A stretch of DNA of 64,000 bases, taken from contig JAUYJU010000027.1 of the NCBI GenBank assembly GCA_030700155.1, forward strand, positions 147,066 through 211,065, in the 5' to 3' direction. The DNA is from Candidatus Nanoarchaeia archaeon. GTDB taxonomy: Archaea; Nanobdellota; Nanobdellia; SCGC-AAA011-G17; JAUYJU01. Shown here piece after piece: positions 2,020 through 32,927 of the stretch; within the stretch, counting starts at the first letter, position 1; each line of letters opens with the position of its first letter. The notes beneath the pieces are model-generated. The model saw nothing but the letters and a program-made list of their open reading frames with translations, ran no database searches and was not told where the DNA came from. A program made the position numbers and the translations under genes.

Positions 2020-2085
2020 TTTCGGAAGATTTCCGGATTTTTTCCAGAAAGTAATATTAATGCGTTTCTTTATTTAAAGAATTAT

Positions 2086-8216: not shown

Positions 8217-9859
8217 TTTTCCTCTTCATTAAAACTAAGCATCTTAACTTGTCTTGATTTTAAATTAAATAAAACAACTTTACTCTTGTCAGGTTGAATC
8301 CCATATTTTTCCTGCATAGATGTTTGATCTTGCCAGCAACCACAACAAATATTGATAACCCCATTATAACTGCCAACACTGGCCTTATGCATATGCCCCG
8401 AAACAAAAATATCTGGAATTTTATCAATTACTAAAGCGTCCTCTTCTGGATCAGGAATTATCTGTGCAGAACCGTGGGTTGGAGCCAAATGTCTTTTCTT
8501 TAATAAAAATTTCATTATTGCGTCTACATTTTGTCCGTTAAATGAATTCCTCACACTCTCAACGTTCTCCATATAATGATGAAAACTATATCCGTGGTAG
8601 AGTAAGATATCAAACCCCTTGAAGTTCTCAGAAGCATGTATGTTAACAACACCAGGATTACTTACTACAGTTAAATTAGGTAAACTTGTGAACGATTTCG
8701 CATAATTATTAAATGCTGGTTGTGGTTCAGCAAGCCTTAACGAATCGTGATTTCCAGGACAAACAATCATTTGTATATCTTTCCTTACCTTGCTGAAAAT
8801 TTCCGCGCAAAGTTCATATTGCTGTACGACATCTTTAACTGCGAGATCTTGATCTTGTTTGGGATAAATGCCGACGCCATCAATTATGTCTCCCGCCATT
8901 ATCAAATACTTAACTTTAGTGGCTATTTTTCTTTGGCTTGAGTCTCCAACTTCTCCATTAAGCCAACTAACGAATTTTTTAAGATCATTTATTAAACACA
9001 ACTCACTTCCAATTTGTAAATCAGAAATGAAAGCAGCATAGACCTCGTCTTCAGATTTTTTGATCTCTTGATTCATTATGTCTGGAAAAATTATTTGGTT
9101 TGCAAAAATTATCTCATTACCATAAAATCCCTTTATACCTATAACCTCGTCCTCGCAAATATCTTCTCCAAGTTGCATTAGCTCTGGATAGTTTTGGCTT
9201 ATTAGTACGCTTATTTTACCTGTTGGATCTTCCAAACTTAAAAGAAGGTTCCCATTTTTAGTTTTTGATTTTGAATATACCAAGCCAATTATGCTTGTTT
9301 CTTCTCTTGTAGTTTTAGATAGCACCCTATTAATGGAAGTTACCTCTTGCATTTCTTGTCTAGATTGTAATATTTTTCTTATTGCCTCATATCTATTCTT
9401 AAAATACTGCACAAAATCATTAAGTTCACGTTTTTTTGTTTTATCTTTGTAAGATTTAACAACTATAACGCTTGTAGAAGAAGCTTCTGGTGTTTCAACT
9501 TCCAGTTTTGTTTCTGGCGTTTCAACTTCCTTTAATATAGCATTCAATTTCTTGGTTTTTTTGTTGTCAACATTATAGTTCAACAAGTCTAAGAAAGTCC
9601 CATATATCTTTTCATCCTTTCCTTTCTCATGGTATACTCTTGATTTTTCAAATTCATACCAATTAATATCTACAACATTACTTCCTTGATTAAAAGCATT
9701 ATACAAATCTTTATTCAAAACTAAAGGCCTCTCTTTTGTAGAAACTCTTGCAGAGAAATCCTCTATAAATCCAGATTCATCAAAGTTAGCGGTCTCAAAA
9801 ATATCAGGACTAATTAAATATCCCCTATCCAATAATCTGGCTACATCCTCTTTTTTCAT
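8213..9859 (-). CDS. polD1: DNA polymerase II (PolD) small subunit DP1
   Basis: Calcineurin/Mre11-type phosphoesterase motifs IMAGDIIDGVG, VCPGNHD and SGHMHK. It sits directly upstream of DP2 and is coupled to cdc6 by an ATGA overlap. Confidence 0.85.
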   Translation of the reverse strand: MKKEDVARLLDRGYLISPDIFETANFDESGFIEDFSARVSTKERPLVLNKDLYNAFNQGSNVVDINWYEFEKSRVYHEKGKDEKIYGTFLDLLNYNVDNKKTKKLNAILKEVETPETKLEVETPEASSTSVIVVKSYKDKTKKRELNDFVQYFKNRYEAIRKILQSRQEMQEVTSINRVLSKTTREETSIIGLVYSKSKTKNGNLLLSLEDPTGKISVLISQNYPELMQLGEDICEDEVIGIKGFYGNEIIFANQIIFPDIMNQEIKKSEDEVYAAFISDLQIGSELCLINDLKKFVSWLNGEVGDSSQRKIATKVKYLIMAGDIIDGVGIYPKQDQDLAVKDVVQQYELCAEIFSKVRKDIQMIVCPGNHDSLRLAEPQPAFNNYAKSFTSLPNLTVVSNPGVVNIHASENFKGFDILLYHGYSFHHYMENVESVRNSFNGQNVDAIMKFLLKKRHLAPTHGSAQIIPDPEEDALVIDKIPDIFVSGHMHKASVGSYNGVINICCGCWQDQTSMQEKYGIQPDKSKVVLFNLKSRQVKMLSFNEEEK

Positions 9860-11061
9860 AATCCCAAACTATCTTTCAATAAATTGTTAATTTTTGGCAC
9901 CGTTGAATCTGGAATAGCTAATCCAATTTGTCTTGTCCTACCATATCTTCCTTTAGAAATTACTTTAGCATTAATTATTCCAAGCATTTCTAACTCGGCA
10001 ACAATGTCAGAAACCCTCCTCTGTGTTAATGGTCTAACCCCTGATTTAAAACAAGCGGTTTTATAGAGCTCATATATGTCTCCAGTAAAAATCGGAGACT
10101 TTGCTCCAATACAGATATTAAAAATAGAATGTAAAACTAATTTGAATTGTTTTGGTTGGGTGTTCACAATATCTAATACCCTATCCCTTTCAATCTTTTC
10201 TTCGGCTTGGTCTATGAAATCCACTACAATTTCAGTGCTACCCTTTCTCTCGGCTAATTCTCCTGCAACCCTTAATAATTCTAAGGCCCTTCTTGCATCA
10301 CCGTGTTCTCTTGCCGCAAAGGCAGCACACTTCTCAATTACCCCTTCTTTTAGTGCACCTTTTCTGAAAGCAACGTCTGCTCTTTGTTTTAATATTTTTT
10401 GTAGTTGAATTGCATTATAAGGAGAAAAAACCATTTCCTCTTCACTTAAACTTGATTTTACTCTTGGATCCAGTTGATCAGTAAACATTAAATCATTAGA
10501 AATTCCTATAATAGATACGTCTGCGTTCTTTAGCTCTGTATTTAATCTAGTTAAGTTATAGAGTATTTCATCACCTGCTTTTGAAACAAGTTGATCAATC
10601 TCATCTAAAACAATTATCAACAGTTTTTCATTATCGTCTAATGCTCTCAAAAATAGTTTATATATCTCATCCGTTGGTAAACCTGTAGCTGGAACTTCTT
10701 GTCCAAACTCCCTAGCTAATTGTGCAATTAACCTATATTCAGTATCTGCAACCCTTTTTAGTTTACAATTTAAATAGAAAACTTTTAAATTAATATTATT
10801 TTTCTTAGCAATCTCTTCAATTTGGTCTGTTGTATGTTTAACACTTAATGTTTTTCCACTGCCAGTTTTACCATAAATAAAAACATTTGAAGGTTTTTCT
10901 AGTCTCAACGCTGGAGCAAGTATTCCTGCAAGTTGTTCAATTTGTGTTGTCCTATAAGGTACGCTCTTTGGTGTATAATTGCCCTGTAGTGCTTTTTTAT
11001 TGATAAAGATAGGCTCTTTCTTCAAGAAACCCTCTAAAAAACCAGCTAATTTTTGCGACAT
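9856..11061 (-). CDS. cdc6: Orc1/Cdc6 replication initiator
   Basis: Walker A GKTGSGKT, Walker B LIIVLDEID, AAA+ sensor regions and a C-terminal winged helix. It lies adjacent to an AT-rich intergenic region. Confidence 0.9.
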   Translation of the reverse strand: MSQKLAGFLEGFLKKEPIFINKKALQGNYTPKSVPYRTTQIEQLAGILAPALRLEKPSNVFIYGKTGSGKTLSVKHTTDQIEEIAKKNNINLKVFYLNCKLKRVADTEYRLIAQLAREFGQEVPATGLPTDEIYKLFLRALDDNEKLLIIVLDEIDQLVSKAGDEILYNLTRLNTELKNADVSIIGISNDLMFTDQLDPRVKSSLSEEEMVFSPYNAIQLQKILKQRADVAFRKGALKEGVIEKCAAFAAREHGDARRALELLRVAGELAERKGSTEIVVDFIDQAEEKIERDRVLDIVNTQPKQFKLVLHSIFNICIGAKSPIFTGDIYELYKTACFKSGVRPLTQRRVSDIVAELEMLGIINAKVISKGRYGRTRQIGLAIPDSTVPKINNLLKDSLGL

Positions 11062-11586
11062 GATTATTTATATTACTATGAGAAGTATTTAAACAAATTT
11101 GTAAACTAACATATACACCGACACCTCTATTTCCTGTAGAAGAAATGATATATAAATGATCAAATAATTTTCTGTTATCATTAAGTGTGAGTAACCTTTA
11201 CTTCTTTTGGAATTTTAAAGGGATAAATTTAAATTAAATTATATTATATTCTACAACACAGAAAAACATATAAACTAAATTATATAATATAAAATAAATA
11301 ATATTAATATAATATAATCTTAAGCCTTCTAATATCATTTTAACCATTTTTTTCAATTTAATTCCATTCAATTAAAAATAGCTTAAAAAGTAGTTATATA
11401 GATACAAGAATAACCAAACAACAAAACAAATACTAAACTTTTTATGAGTAAAACTCCACATGAAATGGTGGTGGGGGTGTAATATCATAAAAACACTTCC
11501 ACTCCAAAAAAGGTTAGAATATTATATTACTACCTAGCTATAAAAGACTAGAAAACTTTATATATCTACATACCCAAAACAAACCT
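11062..11586. promoter_or_regulatory. Candidate chromosomal replication origin (oriC) with ORB-like elements flanking an AT-rich DUE
   Basis: A 525-bp non-coding AT-rich region sits next to cdc6. At 11454..11479 the sequence CTCCACATGAAATGGTGGTGGGGGTG has a dyad core plus a G-string, like Pyrococcus-type ORBs. The reverse orientation at ~11120..11145 gives TCTACAGGAAATAGAGGTG. A weaker copy TTCCACTCCAAAAAAGG lies at 11497. The interval 11200..11420 is almost pure A/T. Confidence 0.45.
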
Positions 11587-14705: not shown

Positions 14706-14770
14706 AAGATTAAAGGTTTAGAAAGTCTTTTTAATGATTACTCAAGAATTTCCGTAAGATTTACGGCCAA

Positions 14771-17038: not shown

Positions 17039-17091
17039 ATATACCAAAATTTTATTAACTTACCCTTCTTTCGACAACATCAAGGGGAGTT

Positions 17092-17715
17092 ATGGTAGAT
17101 TTCGACAGCATCAAAGATGCATTTTTAAAAGTTAAGGAAGATATTCAACGTTTAGAAAAAGAGCTAGCAGAAGCTAAAAAGGCTAATTTAGAACAAAAAG
17201 AAGCCATTTTAGCCTTAAATAAGAAAATCGGTAACCTTTTAAGTTCTGATAAAAGTTTAGAGTTAAATAACAACTTTTTAGAAGAAAGTTCCATAGGAAA
17301 TGATGGGGTTCTTTCGACATCGACGGTTTCGACAGTAACGCCTTCGACAACATTTCGACAGTCTTTCGACAGCAACATCGACGACAACCCCATAGTTGCA
17401 GATATTAAAAAGAAATTCCAAAGTCTCACAGAAAGGGAATTTGCAGTTTTTGCTGCAACCTACCAATTAGAAGAGGAATTTGGCTCACAAGTGACCTATG
17501 CAGATTTAGCTGTAAAACTCTCACTTTCTAGATCTTCAATCAGGGACCACGTAGGAGAGCTTTTATTGAAGAAAGTTCCACTAATTAAACACCAGGCAGG
17601 AGATCGTAAGGTCTCACTTTCTATAAAAAAAGACTTTAGGGACCTGAATGTTATGTCTCAAATCCTCACTTTTAGAGGTTCCCTAGCAAATCAACGTCAA
17701 CTCTCTTCTTTCTAG
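17092..17715 (+). CDS. Coiled-coil protein with a C-terminal sigma-70-region-4-like HTH, putative regulator
   Basis: N-terminal coiled coil (QRLEKELAEAKKANLEQKEAIL). The C-terminus LTEREFAVFAATYQLEEEFGSQVTYADLAVKLSLSRSSIRDHV resembles sigma-70 region 4 / LuxR. The 5' region carries TTCGACA heptamer repeats. Confidence 0.4.
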   Translation: MVDFDSIKDAFLKVKEDIQRLEKELAEAKKANLEQKEAILALNKKIGNLLSSDKSLELNNNFLEESSIGNDGVLSTSTVSTVTPSTTFRQSFDSNIDDNPIVADIKKKFQSLTEREFAVFAATYQLEEEFGSQVTYADLAVKLSLSRSSIRDHVGELLLKKVPLIKHQAGDRKVSLSIKKDFRDLNVMSQILTFRGSLANQRQLSSF

Positions 17716-17858
17716 GATTATTTGAAACCTCACTTTTTGATTTTTGATACTTTTGGCCTATAGAATGAGTCAATATACCCACTAATTTTGATCTAAATCA
17801 CCTAAATATTAAACTCTAAACCCTCACTTTCTAACTTTATTTTAATTTATACTTATTT

Positions 17859-17929
17859 ATTAGGTATTTACTTACATAGTAGTATTAATACTTAACATAT
17901 AAGTATAATATACCTACATAATAAGTAAA
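17859..17929. repeat. 71-bp direct repeat, copy 1, containing the 12-bp palindrome AGTATTAATACT
   Basis: Read identical by eye to 18034..18104. The palindrome is at 17881..17892. Confidence 0.8.
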
Positions 17930-18033
17930 AACCATTAAAAACGCCCAATTACATCCAAATTACCGTAGATCTTATGTTATTTTTTGATATATTTACTCTC
18001 ACTTTTGATTACATTTAGATTATAATCTTACAA

Positions 18034-18104
18034 ATTAGGTATTTACTTACATAGTAGTATTAATACTTAACATATAAGTATAATATACCTACATAATAAG
18101 TAAA
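18034..18104. repeat. 71-bp direct repeat, copy 2, containing AGTATTAATACT
   Basis: Read identical by eye to 17859..17929. The palindrome is at 18056..18067. A third palindrome copy, TAAGTATTAATACTTA, is at 19347..19362. Confidence 0.8.
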
Positions 18105-18164
18105 TTACCCTCACTTTCACCACTTCTTTTTTAGCTACAAACCAAACAAACCCTACAATTTAAT

Positions 18165-18537
18165 GCGTCGATCACGTCTATAGACGCGTCGTAGACGCGT
18201 CCATTCACTCACTTTTAGTAAAATTCGCAACCGGAAATCTTCCGAACGGCATTTCTCATGCCTGCTCAGAAACCAATAAACTAACTCCCCGCTTCTTCTG
18301 GGGCTCACTTTCTTAATCCGGAAATCTTCCGAACGACTTTTTTAGGTGTTGGTGCCGCCTAATTTTATTTAACCCACAGACTGTCTAGACTCCCCTTTTC
18401 AAATCCGGAAATCCTTCAGAACACCAGAAATTCTCAGGAAACTGTAACCAAGTAGCAAGTACAAAATTAGAACGCGTCTACGACATGTCGTCGACGCGTC
18501 TATAGACGTCTTAGACGCGTCGTAGACGCGTCCAAAA
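18165..18537. repeat. GC-rich structured non-coding region: paired ACGCGT/GACGCGTC palindrome clusters flanking three CCGGAAATCTTCCG inverted-repeat units spaced about 87 bp apart
   Basis: The left cluster at 18165..18202 and the right cluster at 18471..18533 share CGTCTATAGACG plus AGACGCGTCGTAGACGCGTCC. IR units lie at 18231, 18318 and 18405. The third is degenerate. Confidence 0.75.
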
Positions 18538-18570
18538 AGTTTATATTCTAGCAAATACTACTATTTTAGC

Positions 18571-19245
18571 ATGGCTATACTATCAATATTTGCTAAGAAG
18601 AGCCCATCTGAAGGCTTAGAACAAAAATTAGCAGTTATAGACCGAAATATTTTCAATTCTTTTAGTGCAGTCAAAGAAGATTTTAGATCAATCAAAAGAT
18701 GGATAGAACATTTTGATGAAATCGACAAAAAACATGACATAGAAATATATGAATTAAAAGGCGAACTTAGATATCTTCGAACAACCTTAAGGGAAGTTCG
18801 CGATCAACAAGAAGAATTACGATCAAGCAGGCTTCATGAATCTCCCCCAAGGTATTATGAAGCACATCAGCAAAAAAGACAACCAATAGTAGAGGATATA
18901 GTCGAAGCAGAAGAGTTTGAGATTGTACCTCAAGTACAAACTCCAGTCAAAGTTGATATGGATCAATTTACTGATACTCAAAAAGCCATTTTTTCTAGGT
19001 TGGGAATCATACAAAAAGAAAGTTCTCAACCCTGGATCCCGCTTAAACATTTGGCTCATGAAGTTTATCCGGAAAAAGAGTACAATGATGTTCGTTCTAC
19101 ATTATCGGAATATATGGGGTTGTTATCAGACGCAGGCTTAATTAAAAGAACAAGAAAAGGAAAACAAACTTTCGTTTCTGTTTCTGAAAAAGGAAAACAA
19201 TTATTTGCTGATAACAGAAAGAAATTAAAACCTAAAGTAAAGTAA
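18571..19245 (+). CDS. Coiled-coil protein with a C-terminal winged helix, putative DNA-binding (regulator or Rep-like) protein
   Basis: N-terminal heptad-repeat region (IEIYELKGELRYLRTTLREVRDQQEEL). The C-terminus has wH-like LSEYMGLLSDAGLIKRTRKGKQTFVSVSEKG. The gene sits immediately downstream of the iteron-like region. Confidence 0.4.
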   Translation: MAILSIFAKKSPSEGLEQKLAVIDRNIFNSFSAVKEDFRSIKRWIEHFDEIDKKHDIEIYELKGELRYLRTTLREVRDQQEELRSSRLHESPPRYYEAHQQKRQPIVEDIVEAEEFEIVPQVQTPVKVDMDQFTDTQKAIFSRLGIIQKESSQPWIPLKHLAHEVYPEKEYNDVRSTLSEYMGLLSDAGLIKRTRKGKQTFVSVSEKGKQLFADNRKKLKPKVK

Positions 19246-19297: not shown

Positions 19298-19317
19298 AAG
19301 AATAAAACTTTTAAGCA
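19298..19317. repeat. 3'-end motif AGAATAAAACTTTTAAGCAA, copy 1 of 3
   Basis: The same motif recurs at 19931..19956 and 20582..20603, each at the stop of a consecutive + strand gene. Confidence 0.7.
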
Positions 19318-19434
19318 AAAACTAAAAGATTTAGTATACTACATATTAAGTATTAATACTTATTATGTAAGGATAACTATTAAAATAAGAGTAGTAAAGT
19401 TAAATTTATAACAAACCTATGCACTATATATCCT

Positions 19435-19929
19435 ATGGGAATTGAACTTAACATTCGAGAAATGAAAGAAGAAAAACCCAAAGATGATTCATTATTTCAA
19501 TGGGGCCTATTAATAGGTCTGATTGCTGGGGGAGTAGTGGGTGGTGTTTTAGGTTACAATCTTGGAAAATGGGTGCCAAAGCCAGCATCTACAAGCTCCA
19601 TAAAACAAATAAAAGGCTATCAGGGAACTGTTAAAGAGGTTTATACTGTTAGTTATAATCGTGCAGATAATTATTTACCGTTCAGAGTAAGCATTGCTCC
19701 AGAGGAAAAAACACCAAATGCAGAATATCTTATCAAATGTATAGATCGCCCAAATAGGGGTAGTTCTAAAATAAATTTATCCAAGCTAGAGGAGTTAATT
19801 AAGCCAGAAATGGGCATTGTGTTAAATCTAGATCAAGCATTACACCGTAAAGAATTATTAATAGACCCTACAAAGATCCTGAGTGTCGGAGGAATAAATA
19901 AAGATTTACTATTAATTAAAATAAAATAA
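19435..19929 (+). CDS. Membrane-anchored hypothetical protein
   Basis: A single TM helix (WGLLIGLIAGGVVGGVLGY), then a soluble domain. Confidence 0.3.
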   Translation: MGIELNIREMKEEKPKDDSLFQWGLLIGLIAGGVVGGVLGYNLGKWVPKPASTSSIKQIKGYQGTVKEVYTVSYNRADNYLPFRVSIAPEEKTPNAEYLIKCIDRPNRGSSKINLSKLEELIKPEMGIVLNLDQALHRKELLIDPTKILSVGGINKDLLLIKIK

Positions 19930-20064
19930 TCAAGAATAAAACTTTTAAGCAATTCTAATAACTTACTGCATAAGCGTAAACGTATCGTATAATAACCATT
20001 ATCAGGCATTGTCTAGTACCATATATACGAACCTTTTTATACTAATTTTGCGTATAATACTATT

Positions 20065-20586
20065 ATGACTGGGGATTATATTCTTTTACCAAAACAAACT
20101 CCAAATGGAAGACCGATGGTAAAATGCGTAAAGTGTGGCAAAATCAAAGAACATCATGCAAGGGGGCATTGTAACTGGTGTTTTAGAAAGTACTTATGGA
20201 CACCCAAAAAGATAACCTGCAAGGAGTGCGGTAGAGAAAGAAACCATAAAGCTTATGGATTATGTGGCGGATGTCATGTTAGGCTAAAACATTATGATAA
20301 CGTCCTTCGTTATAATGCAAAAAAATATCACAACATTGAGTTAGAATATTATCGAGAGATTACCAAGAAGTGCGACAATTGTAATTTTTCTAAGATTGTT
20401 AATATTCATCATTTAGATGGCAATACAAGAAATAATGATAGAAAAAATGTGGTCGGGTTATGTCCAAATTGTCATAAAATGATTCATATGTATAAATATT
20501 TTGAAGAAATTAAAGAAAGTCTAGCAGAGAAGGGCTTTGATGTTTCAATGGTTCATCCTTCAAACTATGTGAATCACAGAAAATAA
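20065..20586 (+). CDS. HNH endonuclease with N-terminal zinc-ribbon repeats
   Basis: Two C-x2-C...H/C modules (CVKCGKIKEHHARGHCNWC and CKECGRERNHKAYGLCGGCH). The C-terminal HNH motif is NIHHLDGNTRNNDRKNVVGLCPNCHKMIH. Confidence 0.65.
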   Translation: MTGDYILLPKQTPNGRPMVKCVKCGKIKEHHARGHCNWCFRKYLWTPKKITCKECGRERNHKAYGLCGGCHVRLKHYDNVLRYNAKKYHNIELEYYREITKKCDNCNFSKIVNIHHLDGNTRNNDRKNVVGLCPNCHKMIHMYKYFEEIKESLAEKGFDVSMVHPSNYVNHRK

Positions 20587-20636: not shown

Positions 20637-20975
20637 TCACTCAAGTTCAATAATTAACTTACGATCTTGAGGATGGATATATGCCTCTTTACCCTCTTTC
20701 AGTTTTAAGTATTCAGCAAGCTTTTTTGGAATCCTTACAGCAAGAGAATTGCCGCTCTTGGATATTTTAGTTTTTTGTCCAATACCCCAAATCCCTTTTT
20801 CTTTAGCAATCTTTTCAATTTTTTCCACATATTTAGAATCTGTAAATAATTCTCCGCACTCAGAACACTTTTCTCCAGGATAAGTTCCCAAATCTACACC
20901 AAACAATACATGTTTTTCTTTCACAGGTTTCAATTTTCCTTTTTCACAGATAGGACATATTTCCATATTTACCAC
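20637..20975 (-). CDS. Zn-ribbon plus AbrB/MazE-like (swapped-hairpin) domain protein, putative antitoxin
   Basis: N-terminal CPICEKG...CSECGE zinc ribbon. C-terminal GNSLAVRIPKKLAEYLKL matches the SpoVT/AbrB fold. It overlaps the downstream small ORF by 7 bp. Confidence 0.45.
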   Translation of the reverse strand: MVNMEICPICEKGKLKPVKEKHVLFGVDLGTYPGEKCSECGELFTDSKYVEKIEKIAKEKGIWGIGQKTKISKSGNSLAVRIPKKLAEYLKLKEGKEAYIHPQDRKLIIELE

Positions 20976-21250: not shown

Positions 21251-21526
21251 TTATACTCTCTTAAATAAATTTCCAACATTATCATAAGCTTCTTTTCTAT
21301 GCTTTAACGCAATGCATACTAAAGTACCAGCTTCAATAAAGAAGAAAAGTCTATAGTCTCCCAGTCTTAATTTTCTTAATGGCTTAAATCCATGCAGTTC
21401 TTGGCTAATCTTAGTTATTCTATCACTATTGGCTATTAATTTTTCCTCTATCTTTTTTAGATAAGTTGCATGTAAATTATACTTTTTAAGATCGGTTTTT
21501 ATGTACTCTACAAACCTTACTAACAT
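21251..21526 (-). CDS. RelE/ParE-family toxin
   Basis: 91 aa with LRKLRLGDYRLFFFIE...CIALKHRKEAY, the typical RelE core. It abuts the upstream small ORF (stop and start adjacent). Confidence 0.55.
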   Translation of the reverse strand: MLVRFVEYIKTDLKKYNLHATYLKKIEEKLIANSDRITKISQELHGFKPLRKLRLGDYRLFFFIEAGTLVCIALKHRKEAYDNVGNLFKRV

Positions 21527-32156: not shown

Positions 32157-32846
32157 ATGAGAATGAATGTAAGATTAGCGGAACTTTTTGGAGCAATGAT
32201 GGGAGATGGTTGTTTATCTTTAATTAACAACAAATCAGAAAATAGAAAAAGAAAAATAGCTCTTCTAACGGGACATTTAAAACACGATTACAATTATTAT
32301 ACTAGAGTAATTCAACCAATAGTCAAGGAAAATTTTAAGATAAATGGTTATATCAAAAAACGCGAAAAAAGAAATTGTATTTATTATGAAATAGGTGGAG
32401 TCGTATTTGACTTTCTAAATAATGAAGGATTTCCCATAGGGTTAAAAACCAAACTTTTTATACCTCAAAAAATTTTAAGAAAACGTCAATTAGCTAGGGC
32501 ATGTGTAAGGGGCATTTTTAATACCGCTGGAACTATTTATCGAAGATATAGAAAAAAATATAACAAACATCCAAAAATCTACAACTATCAAGTTATTCAA
32601 TTTAAATTAAACAGTAAAAGAACAATAAAACAAATTAAAGGTGTACTTGACAGGATCAATATTAATTCAAATAGAATTATTAGGGATAAGAAAAGTTATG
32701 TACTTAGAATAACGGACCAAACAGGCATTAAAAAATTCATGGAAAAAATCCGTCCAAGTAATAATTACCACGTAGAAAGATATATAAATCATATTTCAGA
32801 CATTTCTGACAAAGGGCTCGTAGCTCAGCCTGGTCAGAGCACTTGA
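32157..32846 (+). CDS. Free-standing LAGLIDADG homing endonuclease
   Basis: The N-terminal LAELFGAMMGDGCLS is a canonical LAGLIDADG motif. A second degenerate copy is LARACVRGIFNTAGTI. The annotated 3' end overlaps the 5' part of the downstream tRNA. Confidence 0.6.
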   Translation: MRMNVRLAELFGAMMGDGCLSLINNKSENRKRKIALLTGHLKHDYNYYTRVIQPIVKENFKINGYIKKREKRNCIYYEIGGVVFDFLNNEGFPIGLKTKLFIPQKILRKRQLARACVRGIFNTAGTIYRRYRKKYNKHPKIYNYQVIQFKLNSKRTIKQIKGVLDRININSNRIIRDKKSYVLRITDQTGIKKFMEKIRPSNNYHVERYINHISDISDKGLVAQPGQST

Positions 32847-32927
32847 AAGTCTTAAAGGCTTGGTGAAGCTCTTATGCCATCAGACGGAGCGACCAAGGGG
32901 TCGAGGGTTCGAATCCCTCCGAGCCCG
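32814..32927 (+). tRNA. tRNA gene about 40 nt longer than canonical (intron or introns likely, possibly at non-canonical positions). Anticodon not assigned
   Basis: Acceptor GGGCTCG pairs with CGAGCCC. D-arm GCTC-AGCCTGGTCA-GAGC. T-arm GAGGG-TTCGAAT-CCCTC. There is extra sequence between the D-arm and the variable region. I could not fold a canonical 7-nt anticodon loop with U33 by hand. Confidence 0.55.

Follow-up and report, generated by a model that had tools for sequence, protein, structure and literature searches.

Phased palindromic box arrays at the p224 promoter of a Nanoarchaeia chromosome: a probable autoregulatory control region near the likely replication origin

The segment described here, at positions 18165-18537 of a 64,000-nucleotide stretch of DNA (the window, analysed at its full length), belongs to the chromosome of a Nanoarchaeia (DPANN) metagenome-assembled genome with a GC content of about 33% (contig JAUYJU010000027.1). 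It lies within an 855-bp gap between two genes of the same strand, p207 and p224, and is probably the upstream control region of the conserved p224 gene, with arrays of palindromic boxes on which the p224 protein would act cooperatively to regulate its own gene. The same layout recurs across the lineage with different box sequences, and the protein encoded by p224 belongs to an uncharacterised, lineage-wide DPANN family.

The segment is GC-rich, as the first-pass annotation of this DNA had recognised: its GC content of 45.8%, against a window mean of 32.7% (sd 3.4, in 373-nt windows), ranks first in the 64 kb, and its CpG density is about seven times the window average. Two palindrome clusters bound it, a distal (left) array and a proximal (right) array (Table 1), at the positions given to them by that annotation. 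All five exact copies of GACGCGTC in the window, where 0.03 are expected, fall within the two clusters, and when a single mismatch is tolerated the segment accounts for six of the window's ten matches. The boxes are 8-bp palindromes of the form GACG(CG)TC that follow one another at about 11 bp, approximately one helical turn. The units of the distal array, which lies 277 bp upstream of the proximal one, are spaced by 10, 11 and 11 bp and include perfect GACGCGTC boxes at 18183 and 18194, and the boxes of the proximal array start at 18470/71, 18481, 18493, 18504, 18514 and 18525, a spacing of 10-12 bp with a mean of 11, their centres running from about -96 to -42 relative to the p224 ATG. The self-match of the proximal array at lag 11 is 0.52, a value that no shuffle reaches, and two arrays of 11-bp period, 18181-18201 and 18487-18532, are reported by Tandem Repeats Finder. 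In the box searches the proximal array and its distal copy constitute the sole array locus of the 64 kb. The left cluster repeats the right one directly but in shortened form, both in the window and in the group of relatives at 50% identity; the shared stretch of about 35 bp noted in the first-pass annotation corresponds to repeat family D2, a common block of about 35 nt at 71-74% identity, and the likeness extends to the non-palindromic parts. The inverted copy that had also been noted is recovered as inverted relations I2, I18 and I24. The description of the region as iteron-like holds for the GACGCGTC boxes, with their 11-bp period, but not for the CCGGAAATCTTCCG dyads between the clusters, which are a separate type of operator.

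The position of the proximal array relative to the promoter is exact. Its last box ends at 18532 and the array stops 1 bp before the B recognition element (BRE) of the p224 gene, whose TATA element has its start at -31, counted from the ATG at 18571. Of the 54 genes in the window, 16 have a TATA-like heptamer in the peak interval of -33 to -28, and leaderless transcription is therefore the norm there; the p224 gene is likewise predicted to be leaderless, with a TATA geometry typical of this genome. A scan for sigma-70 promoters and intrinsic terminators was set aside as inapplicable to archaea.

Contigs of relatives with p224 homologues were obtained by exact-protein look-up and pattern scans, and box arrays were found in relatives throughout the lineage. 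Ten orthologous regions, from relatives at 50-80% protein identity, were aligned and their box positions scored with a one-mismatch filter. In these ten loci the boxes lie at about -42, -52, -62/-64, -74, -84 and -94/-96 from the ATG, with one or two positions falling below the filter in most of them. The GACG and CGTC positions are (almost) invariant and the 3-bp spacers vary, which argues for a protein footprint rather than a stem, and it is concluded that the clusters are predicted protein-binding arrays and not the two sides of an RNA stem. The region between the clusters aligns poorly, with many indels, the conserved exceptions being short heads of the form CTCACTT-(T/A-rich)-CGGAA-N3-TTCCG. 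The distal cluster is present in all close relatives except L004, and is also found 100-200 bp upstream in L028-L030. A wider set of 23 loci takes in distant homologues (25-38% identity), and in 16 of the 23 the sequence just upstream of the BRE/TATA matches itself best at lag 11; the lag-11 match in L005 and L016 is no better than in shuffles (p = 0.06 and 0.79) and six other loci, five of them of the L035 type, have their peak at lag 20.

Comparison of box sequences with the predicted recognition helices of the neighbouring proteins provides the link to p224. The box unit is TGACG(CG)TCA in L006, L007, L011, L012 and L035, GCGTTAGTAAT/GCGTCGGTAAC in L017 and L019, GAACCGT in L022, ACTTACGTTT in L024 and GTCAAGTAGTT/CTAAACAATAA in L028-L030. 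A p224 recognition helix reading VRST.SEY or IRST.SEY accompanies boxes of the ACG(C/T)GTC type and VRSM.SDY accompanies the closely related TGACG(CG)TCA boxes, whereas the helices IKSLLSAY, VRPMISLY and SRSAMAQL accompany unrelated boxes. The recognition helix of p207, EGCIRTY, is nearly constant across lineages with unrelated arrays. Box sequences therefore appear to follow the recognition helix of p224 and not that of p207 which, qualitatively and over about six lineages, points to p224 as the array binder. Furthermore, the arrays of the relatives consistently abut the p224 promoter.

In the AlphaFold2 model of p224 a short, hydrophobic N-terminus leads into a long helix (residues 12-88), which an acidic, disordered linker (89-126) joins to a winged helix at the C-terminus (135-217), in agreement with the coiled-coil and winged-helix product that the first-pass annotation had read from 18571-19245. 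The suggested resemblance to Rep proteins was not borne out: the model has a single winged helix and a coiled coil, and no Pfam Rep family is matched. In a profile search p224 gathered 341 clusters (E <= 0.001; clustering at 50% identity); of the 150 listed, almost all have a length of about 170-240 residues. No family of Pfam, NCBIfam or PHROGs reaches its cut-off for p224, and no Rep family does so for p224 or p207. Foldseek returned AF1382, ArsR/SqrR, MarR, AspA, TubR, Sso10a-2 and winged-helix domains of ORC proteins, all at E about 3e-3, so that attempts to assign a function by these family collections, by sequence search of the PDB and by fold comparison ended in generic winged-helix matches only. 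The predicted architecture of p207 is the same, including the N-terminal long helix and the C-terminal winged helix, but BLASTP detects no sequence similarity between the two proteins and the idea that they are paralogues was rejected. No paper mentioning GACGCGTC in archaea was found in the literature, and no link was established between p224 or p207 and OG0000296, the phylum-wide single-copy winged-helix regulator of a 2026 Nanobdellota preprint.

On the reading proposed here, winged-helix dimers of p224 would occupy successive palindromic boxes along one face of the DNA and form a cooperative filament. The promoter-proximal filament, ending 1 bp before the BRE, could then control the access of TFB and TBP, resulting in autoregulation of p224 that would most likely be repression. 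The long N-terminal coiled coil may bridge the distal and proximal arrays so that the DNA between them is looped out, and a second factor, active at other promoters too, might act on the CGGAA-N3-TTCCG dyads within the loop.

Table 1. Positions in the window of the sequence elements and proteins discussed in the text
Feature	Position	Strand	Description
Distal (left) array	18165-18202	no strand	four CGTC-centred units at 18166, 18176, 18187, 18198
Proximal (right) array	18470-18532	no strand	six GACG(CG)TC-type boxes
BRE/TATA of p224 gene	18533-18547	+	CAAAAAG TTTATATT; invariant in 10 relatives
p224	18571-19245	+	224 aa; AlphaFold2 model; proposed box-array binder
p207	17092-17715	+	AlphaFold2 model: helix 4-55, disordered 53-97, winged helix 100-194
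Dyad operator 1 (putative)	18231-18244	no strand	exact CCGGAAATCTTCCG (CGGAA-N3-TTCCG)
Dyad operator 2 (putative)	18318-18331	no strand	exact CCGGAAATCTTCCG, CTCACTTTCTTAAT just before
Dyad operator 3 (putative)	18405-18418	no strand	3 mismatches; orthologue near 4837 in L001 also degenerate
Dyad operator 4 (putative)	18424-18438	no strand	decayed CCAGAAATTCTCAGG; orthologue in L001 (closest relative) is perfect CCGGAAATCTTCCGG
CTCACTTT array	17520-18311	+	nine motifs; 13 in window vs 3.4 expected
AT-rich zone	17852-18104	no strand	two 78-nt repeats, 17852-17929 and 18027-18104, 96% identical
ORB-like element	11118-11145	reverse complement	reads TTCTACAGGAAATAGAGGTGTC
ORB-like element	11452-11479	+	reads CTCCACATGAAATGGTGGTGGGGGT

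The dyads between the clusters are the second type of site in the segment. The first-pass annotation had described three of them, the third (18405) degenerate; this was confirmed, with exact copies at 18231 and 18318, although the spacing is 87 and 87 bp and not 87 and 86. With a fourth copy included, two of the four dyads in the gap are decayed. The even spacing, on which that annotation had remarked, holds for the window and for L001 without being general, given that the relatives have 2-5 dyads at 74-89 bp. An 87-bp tandem repeat was rejected: Tandem Repeats Finder calls none and the three units of about 87 bp share only a head of about 30 nt. Exact or compensated copies of the dyad occur elsewhere in the window at 737-749, 2023-2036 (-) and 14753-14766 (-). 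The second, of the form CGNAA-N3-TTNCG, is directly upstream of the ATG of a gene for a PD-(D/E)XK/Cas4-like nuclease, and the third, of the same form, is upstream of a gene of the staphylococcal-nuclease type. In relatives, a dyad is placed between the TATA element and the ATG of the p89 gene (TTTTTATATC-CGTAAATTTTACG-8 nt-ATG), and copies are found at 2563 in L001, 2493 in L031, 2432 in L032 and 1234 in L036. Some copies have changed symmetrically, to CGTAA..TTACG or CGCAA..TTGCG. Since transcripts are leaderless, promoter dyads between TATA and ATG would not be transcribed. The dyads are thus regarded as putative operators of a second, multi-target factor, distinct from the boxes, and the promoters that carry them suggest a small regulon, possibly tied to DNA metabolism.

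At least five classes of cis-motif share the region. Three of the nine CTCACTTT (CTCACTT) motifs are inside p207, in the 3' portion of its coding sequence and in two reading frames, and two, at 18208 and 18304, are within the segment itself; their positions are conserved in all relatives, none is on the minus strand, and distant relatives carry the variant CTCTCATTTT. Codons within the motifs are synonymously invariant in 7 of 8 cases compared with 33 of 93 elsewhere (Fisher p = 0.006). From its conserved recognition helix, p207 is a candidate binder of CTCACTTT. The six copies of TTTCGACA in the 64 kb are all at 17069-17371 (+), two flanking the start codon of p207 and the other four within the CpG-rich coding stretch of its disordered linker, a stretch conserved at the nucleotide level in seven relatives; these copies look like a second set of boxes, belonging to the p207 gene itself. 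Upstream of the distal array, the AT-rich zone (17716-18164, 24% GC) contains two 78-nt repeats that carry TACTTA-N5-TAAGTA palindromes. This palindrome is confined to 17850-18102 and the surroundings of 19357 (6 matches in the window, 0.5 expected), where a third group, at 19340-19376, lies in the promoter region of the following gene (19435). The AT-rich zone is shrunken or gone in relatives, the entire gap of L035 being only 185 bp. Taken together, the CTCACTT motifs, the TTTCGACA set and the AT-rich palindromes suggest that the whole of 17.0-18.6 kb may be a multi-protein assembly site. CpG is strongly depleted across the window, at a frequency of 0.0125 against about 0.027 calculated from base composition, the rare places dense in CpG being the motif arrays at 17311-17390, 18165-18202 and 18470-18532.

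The locus is located in a conserved chromosomal neighbourhood. In a tblastn survey the order Orc1/Cdc6-PRC-LonB-p148-(p89)-p207-gap-p224 was found in the window, where the orc1/cdc6 gene is at 9856-11061 on the minus strand, and in relatives. From Orc1 to p224 the order is kept in relatives with 50-90% identity, and it is also kept in Woesearchaeota-type genomes with a p224 at 25-38% identity (L005-L008, L017, L019, L028, L035). The triad of p148, p207 and p224 stays together down to 25% identity, and the locus is 4-7 kb from orc1/cdc6 throughout the lineage. Downstream of p224 is a variable region. A 21-nt element, AAGAATAAAACTTTTAAGCAA, recurs unchanged after 634 bp (19298-19318 and 19932-19952), in front of two consecutive genes (19435-19929 and an HNH/zinc-ribbon gene at 20065-20586). 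Further along are an antitoxin-like gene of MazE/AbrB type that has an N-terminal zinc ribbon and a ParE-toxin-like gene (20637-20975 and 21251-21526, both on the minus strand), which represent a toxin-antitoxin pair or the remnant of one. Elsewhere in the window, a 114-nt tRNA gene at 32814-32927 (+), presumably intron-containing, scores 51 bits in Rfam and is missed by ARAGORN.

Several points weigh against autoregulation by p224 as the full account of these arrays. First, the arrays are upstream of the BRE and not over the TATA element or the transcription start, so that activation is as possible as repression. Second, in these uncultured organisms the predicted binding of p224 to the arrays rests on position and on the co-variation of box and helix, and the latter correspondence is qualitative, extending over some six lineages. 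Third, the distances between the clusters (159, 182, 267 and 276-277 bp) share no common helical phase and are not a constant multiple of the helical repeat; helical phasing between the two arrays was therefore rejected, and looping is not supported by phasing. Finally, the CTCACTT array, the AT-rich palindromes and the strongly conserved, oriC-adjacent gene order (oriC being the chromosomal replication origin) stay unexplained by autoregulation, and together hint at a role beyond self-regulation.

One such role is that of a centromere or anchoring site: the arrays and p224 may form a segrosome- or kinetochore-like complex on origin-proximal DNA, with autoregulation as a by-product, as in the ParR/parC and RacA/ram systems. 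In that case the coiled coil, and perhaps the hydrophobic N-terminus, might speculatively link p224 to a partner or to the membrane. This is considered unlikely, albeit not negligible. R1 parC likewise places two groups of 11-bp repeats at the binder's own promoter (PMC2241845), and RacA joins a DNA-binding domain, a disordered linker and a coiled coil and has clustered GC-rich palindromes near the origin (PMC4914108). The constant proximity to orc1/cdc6 and the presence of only one array locus in 64 kb are in keeping with such a site, and the fold matches of p224 include the centromere-binding proteins AspA and TubR, at a generic winged-helix level only. However, two observations oppose it: first, neither the window nor any relative has a ParA/ParM/TubZ-type nucleoside triphosphatase (NTPase) beside the locus, and no deviant Walker box occurs in the 64 kb, where the only P-loop proteins are LonB, Orc1 and a RadA/KaiC-like protein. 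ATPase families are absent from the ten open reading frames of 13.7-21.5 kb, and the precomputed Pfam marks on the called genes of relatives contain no partition NTPase. Second, the matches to AspA and TubR, at 14-23% identity, do not surpass the matches to ordinary ArsR/MarR repressors. Of the partition site offered as one option in the first-pass annotation, the resemblance to the parC layout stands, but no motor gene is nearby. A more specific version, that p148, p207, the arrays and p224 constitute a motor-less, lineage-specific centromere or anchor across Nanoarchaeia and Woesearchaeota, in which p224 would coat the phased boxes and p207 would bind the CTCACTT/TTTCGACA arrays, is judged decidedly unlikely. 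If true, a motor-less chromosomal system of this kind would bear on DNA segregation in very small archaeal cells.

It is also conceivable that the boxes are bound by p207, p89, p148 or an unlinked factor, p224 being only the gene that is regulated. The cluster encodes three or four proteins of DNA-binding type, at least five classes of motif occupy the region, and direct assignment of the binder is beyond computation. This scenario is nonetheless very unlikely, given that the EGCIRTY helix of p207 is near-constant despite unrelated arrays while the p224 helix changes with box class, that the arrays always abut the p224 promoter, and that p89 is undetected by tblastn in the majority of the distant relatives that retain arrays.

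The proposal that the region is a second replication origin or a replication-control element, as in the replication origin of the first-pass annotation, would make the boxes initiator sites for p224 or p207 and 17716-18164 the site of unwinding. The repeats do adjoin an AT-rich, palindrome-rich zone, orc1/cdc6 is close and precomputed Pfam annotation places faint HTH_36/DnaD_N matches on p207 orthologues. The likely chromosomal oriC, however, is the intergene between orc1/cdc6 and the PRC-barrel gene (11062-11586), 7 kb from the segment, where inverted elements resembling the origin recognition box (ORB; Table 1) flank an AT-rich core at 11225-11345; L004 retains both elements (about 1262-1295 and 1606-1633). 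The gap at 17716-18570 contains no ORB-like element, no Rep or initiator family scored, the GC skew makes no turn at 18 kb, where a shift had been suggested as a check, and the AT-rich zone shrinks or vanishes in relatives. A second origin is accordingly a highly improbable explanation.

Least credible of all is a structured non-coding RNA of about 370 nt, with the two clusters as its long terminal stem and perhaps processed or circularised through flanking inverted repeats of the archaeal type. Single-sequence folds, which the first-pass annotation had recommended, are indeed stabler than shuffles on both strands (z = -3.9 on the plus and -5.6 on the minus strand), with a long terminal helix, and the region is GC-rich in an AT-rich genome, but this stability is uninformative because arrays of palindromes give it in any case. 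Searches of Rfam, even at permissive thresholds, produced no match in the gap and only tRNAs in the window and five relatives. RNAalifold on the ten regions gave a covariation term of 0.03, with no compensatory change in 30 of 31 pairs; the paired columns are invariant palindromes and the one pair with double changes is inside a dyad. Moreover, the clusters are direct repeats of each other, non-palindromic parts included, the interior is poorly conserved and indel-rich with hairpins that are not kept in L001, and the right cluster is upstream of the sole recognisable promoter. The structured RNA locus that had been suggested is thus not supported. Nor does the gap hide a coding sequence: the matches of a six-frame comparison were spread over every frame and either strand, which indicates conserved DNA and not a conserved reading frame. 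An integrated plasmid or virus, the source envisaged earlier for an origin, is likewise not supported, since the neighbourhood is kept down to 25-35% protein identity, BLAST finds no similarity to the region in plasmid and phage DNA collections, and a scan of viral contigs found no relative of the p224 protein family and nine box-pair matches, all in unrelated high-GC contigs.

In DPANN archaea the majority of conserved proteins have no assigned function, and to our knowledge nothing is known experimentally of chromosome organisation, segregation or cell-cycle control in this group. The p224 protein, of a family of about 340 clusters without a Pfam entry, and its array offer a concrete and testable protein-DNA pair near the origin. 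Should p224 be an autoregulated regulator only, the lineage would still provide a natural series for the change of specificity in winged helices and a model of cooperative operator arrays with helical phasing in archaea.

Comparison with known systems places the site between several of them. In R1 parC, two sets of five 11-bp iterons surround the par promoter and each iteron is bound by one ParR dimer; binding to the phased sites is cooperative and the arrays double as autoregulatory operators (PMC2241845). The present site similarly has two separate sets of 11-bp repeats (4 and 6 units) at the promoter of the binder's operon, but the parC sets flank the promoter 39 bp apart whereas both sets here are upstream of it and 159-277 bp apart, and the simple direct repeats of parC contrast with the palindromic boxes. 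ParR is a ribbon-helix-helix protein and p224 is predicted to be a coiled coil with a winged helix; type II partition has the ParM motor, and here there is no ParM-like gene and the site is chromosomal and archaeal. The ram sites of RacA are clustered GC-rich palindromes (TGACGCCGGCGTCA) near the origin (PMC4914108). RacA and p224 are alike in having a coiled coil and a disordered linker besides the DNA-binding domain, and both have palindromes with a GACGC/GCGTC core near the origin, but the order of the domains is reversed and RacA is MerR/TnrA-like where p224 is ArsR/MarR-like; RacA is absent from the PDB sequence matches and from the 50 best fold matches listed for p224; the likeness is one of architecture and type of site only. 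About 25 ram sites are scattered over hundreds of kb, in contrast to one phased array at the protein's own promoter, and the DivIVA-type partner of RacA has no known counterpart for p224.

As winged-helix dimers, TubR and AspA cover iterated or nucleating sites ahead of their own operon and assemble a higher-order filament. In type III TubR/tubC and in AspA of pNOB8 the winged helix is shared with p224, for which dimers and a filament are proposed only; TubR and AspA lack the long N-terminal coiled coil predicted for p224, and their operons encode TubZ or ParB/ParA, whereas no NTPase is linked here. Iterons are direct repeats of 17-22 bp bound by Rep monomers with two winged-helix domains. Iteron origins (RepA/RepE/pi) resemble the present site in having phased repeated sites beside an AT-rich segment and the gene of a DNA-binding protein that is probably self-regulating. 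They differ in their repeats, which here are 8-bp palindromes every 11 bp, in their initiator, given the single winged helix of the p224 model and the lack of a scoring Rep family, and in their location on plasmids as opposed to a conserved chromosome that is not a mobile element. With archaeal oriC the site shares origin proximity, repeated elements and a neighbouring AT-rich stretch, but such origins have ORB or mini-ORB elements for Orc1/Cdc6, and the gap contains neither consensus. Set against parC/ParR, TubR/tubC, AspA, RacA/ram and iteron origins, the site departs from each in one or more defining features (fold or family, motor, repeat type or mobile context) and, while likened to a phased operator or a segrosome array, is a member of none of those families.

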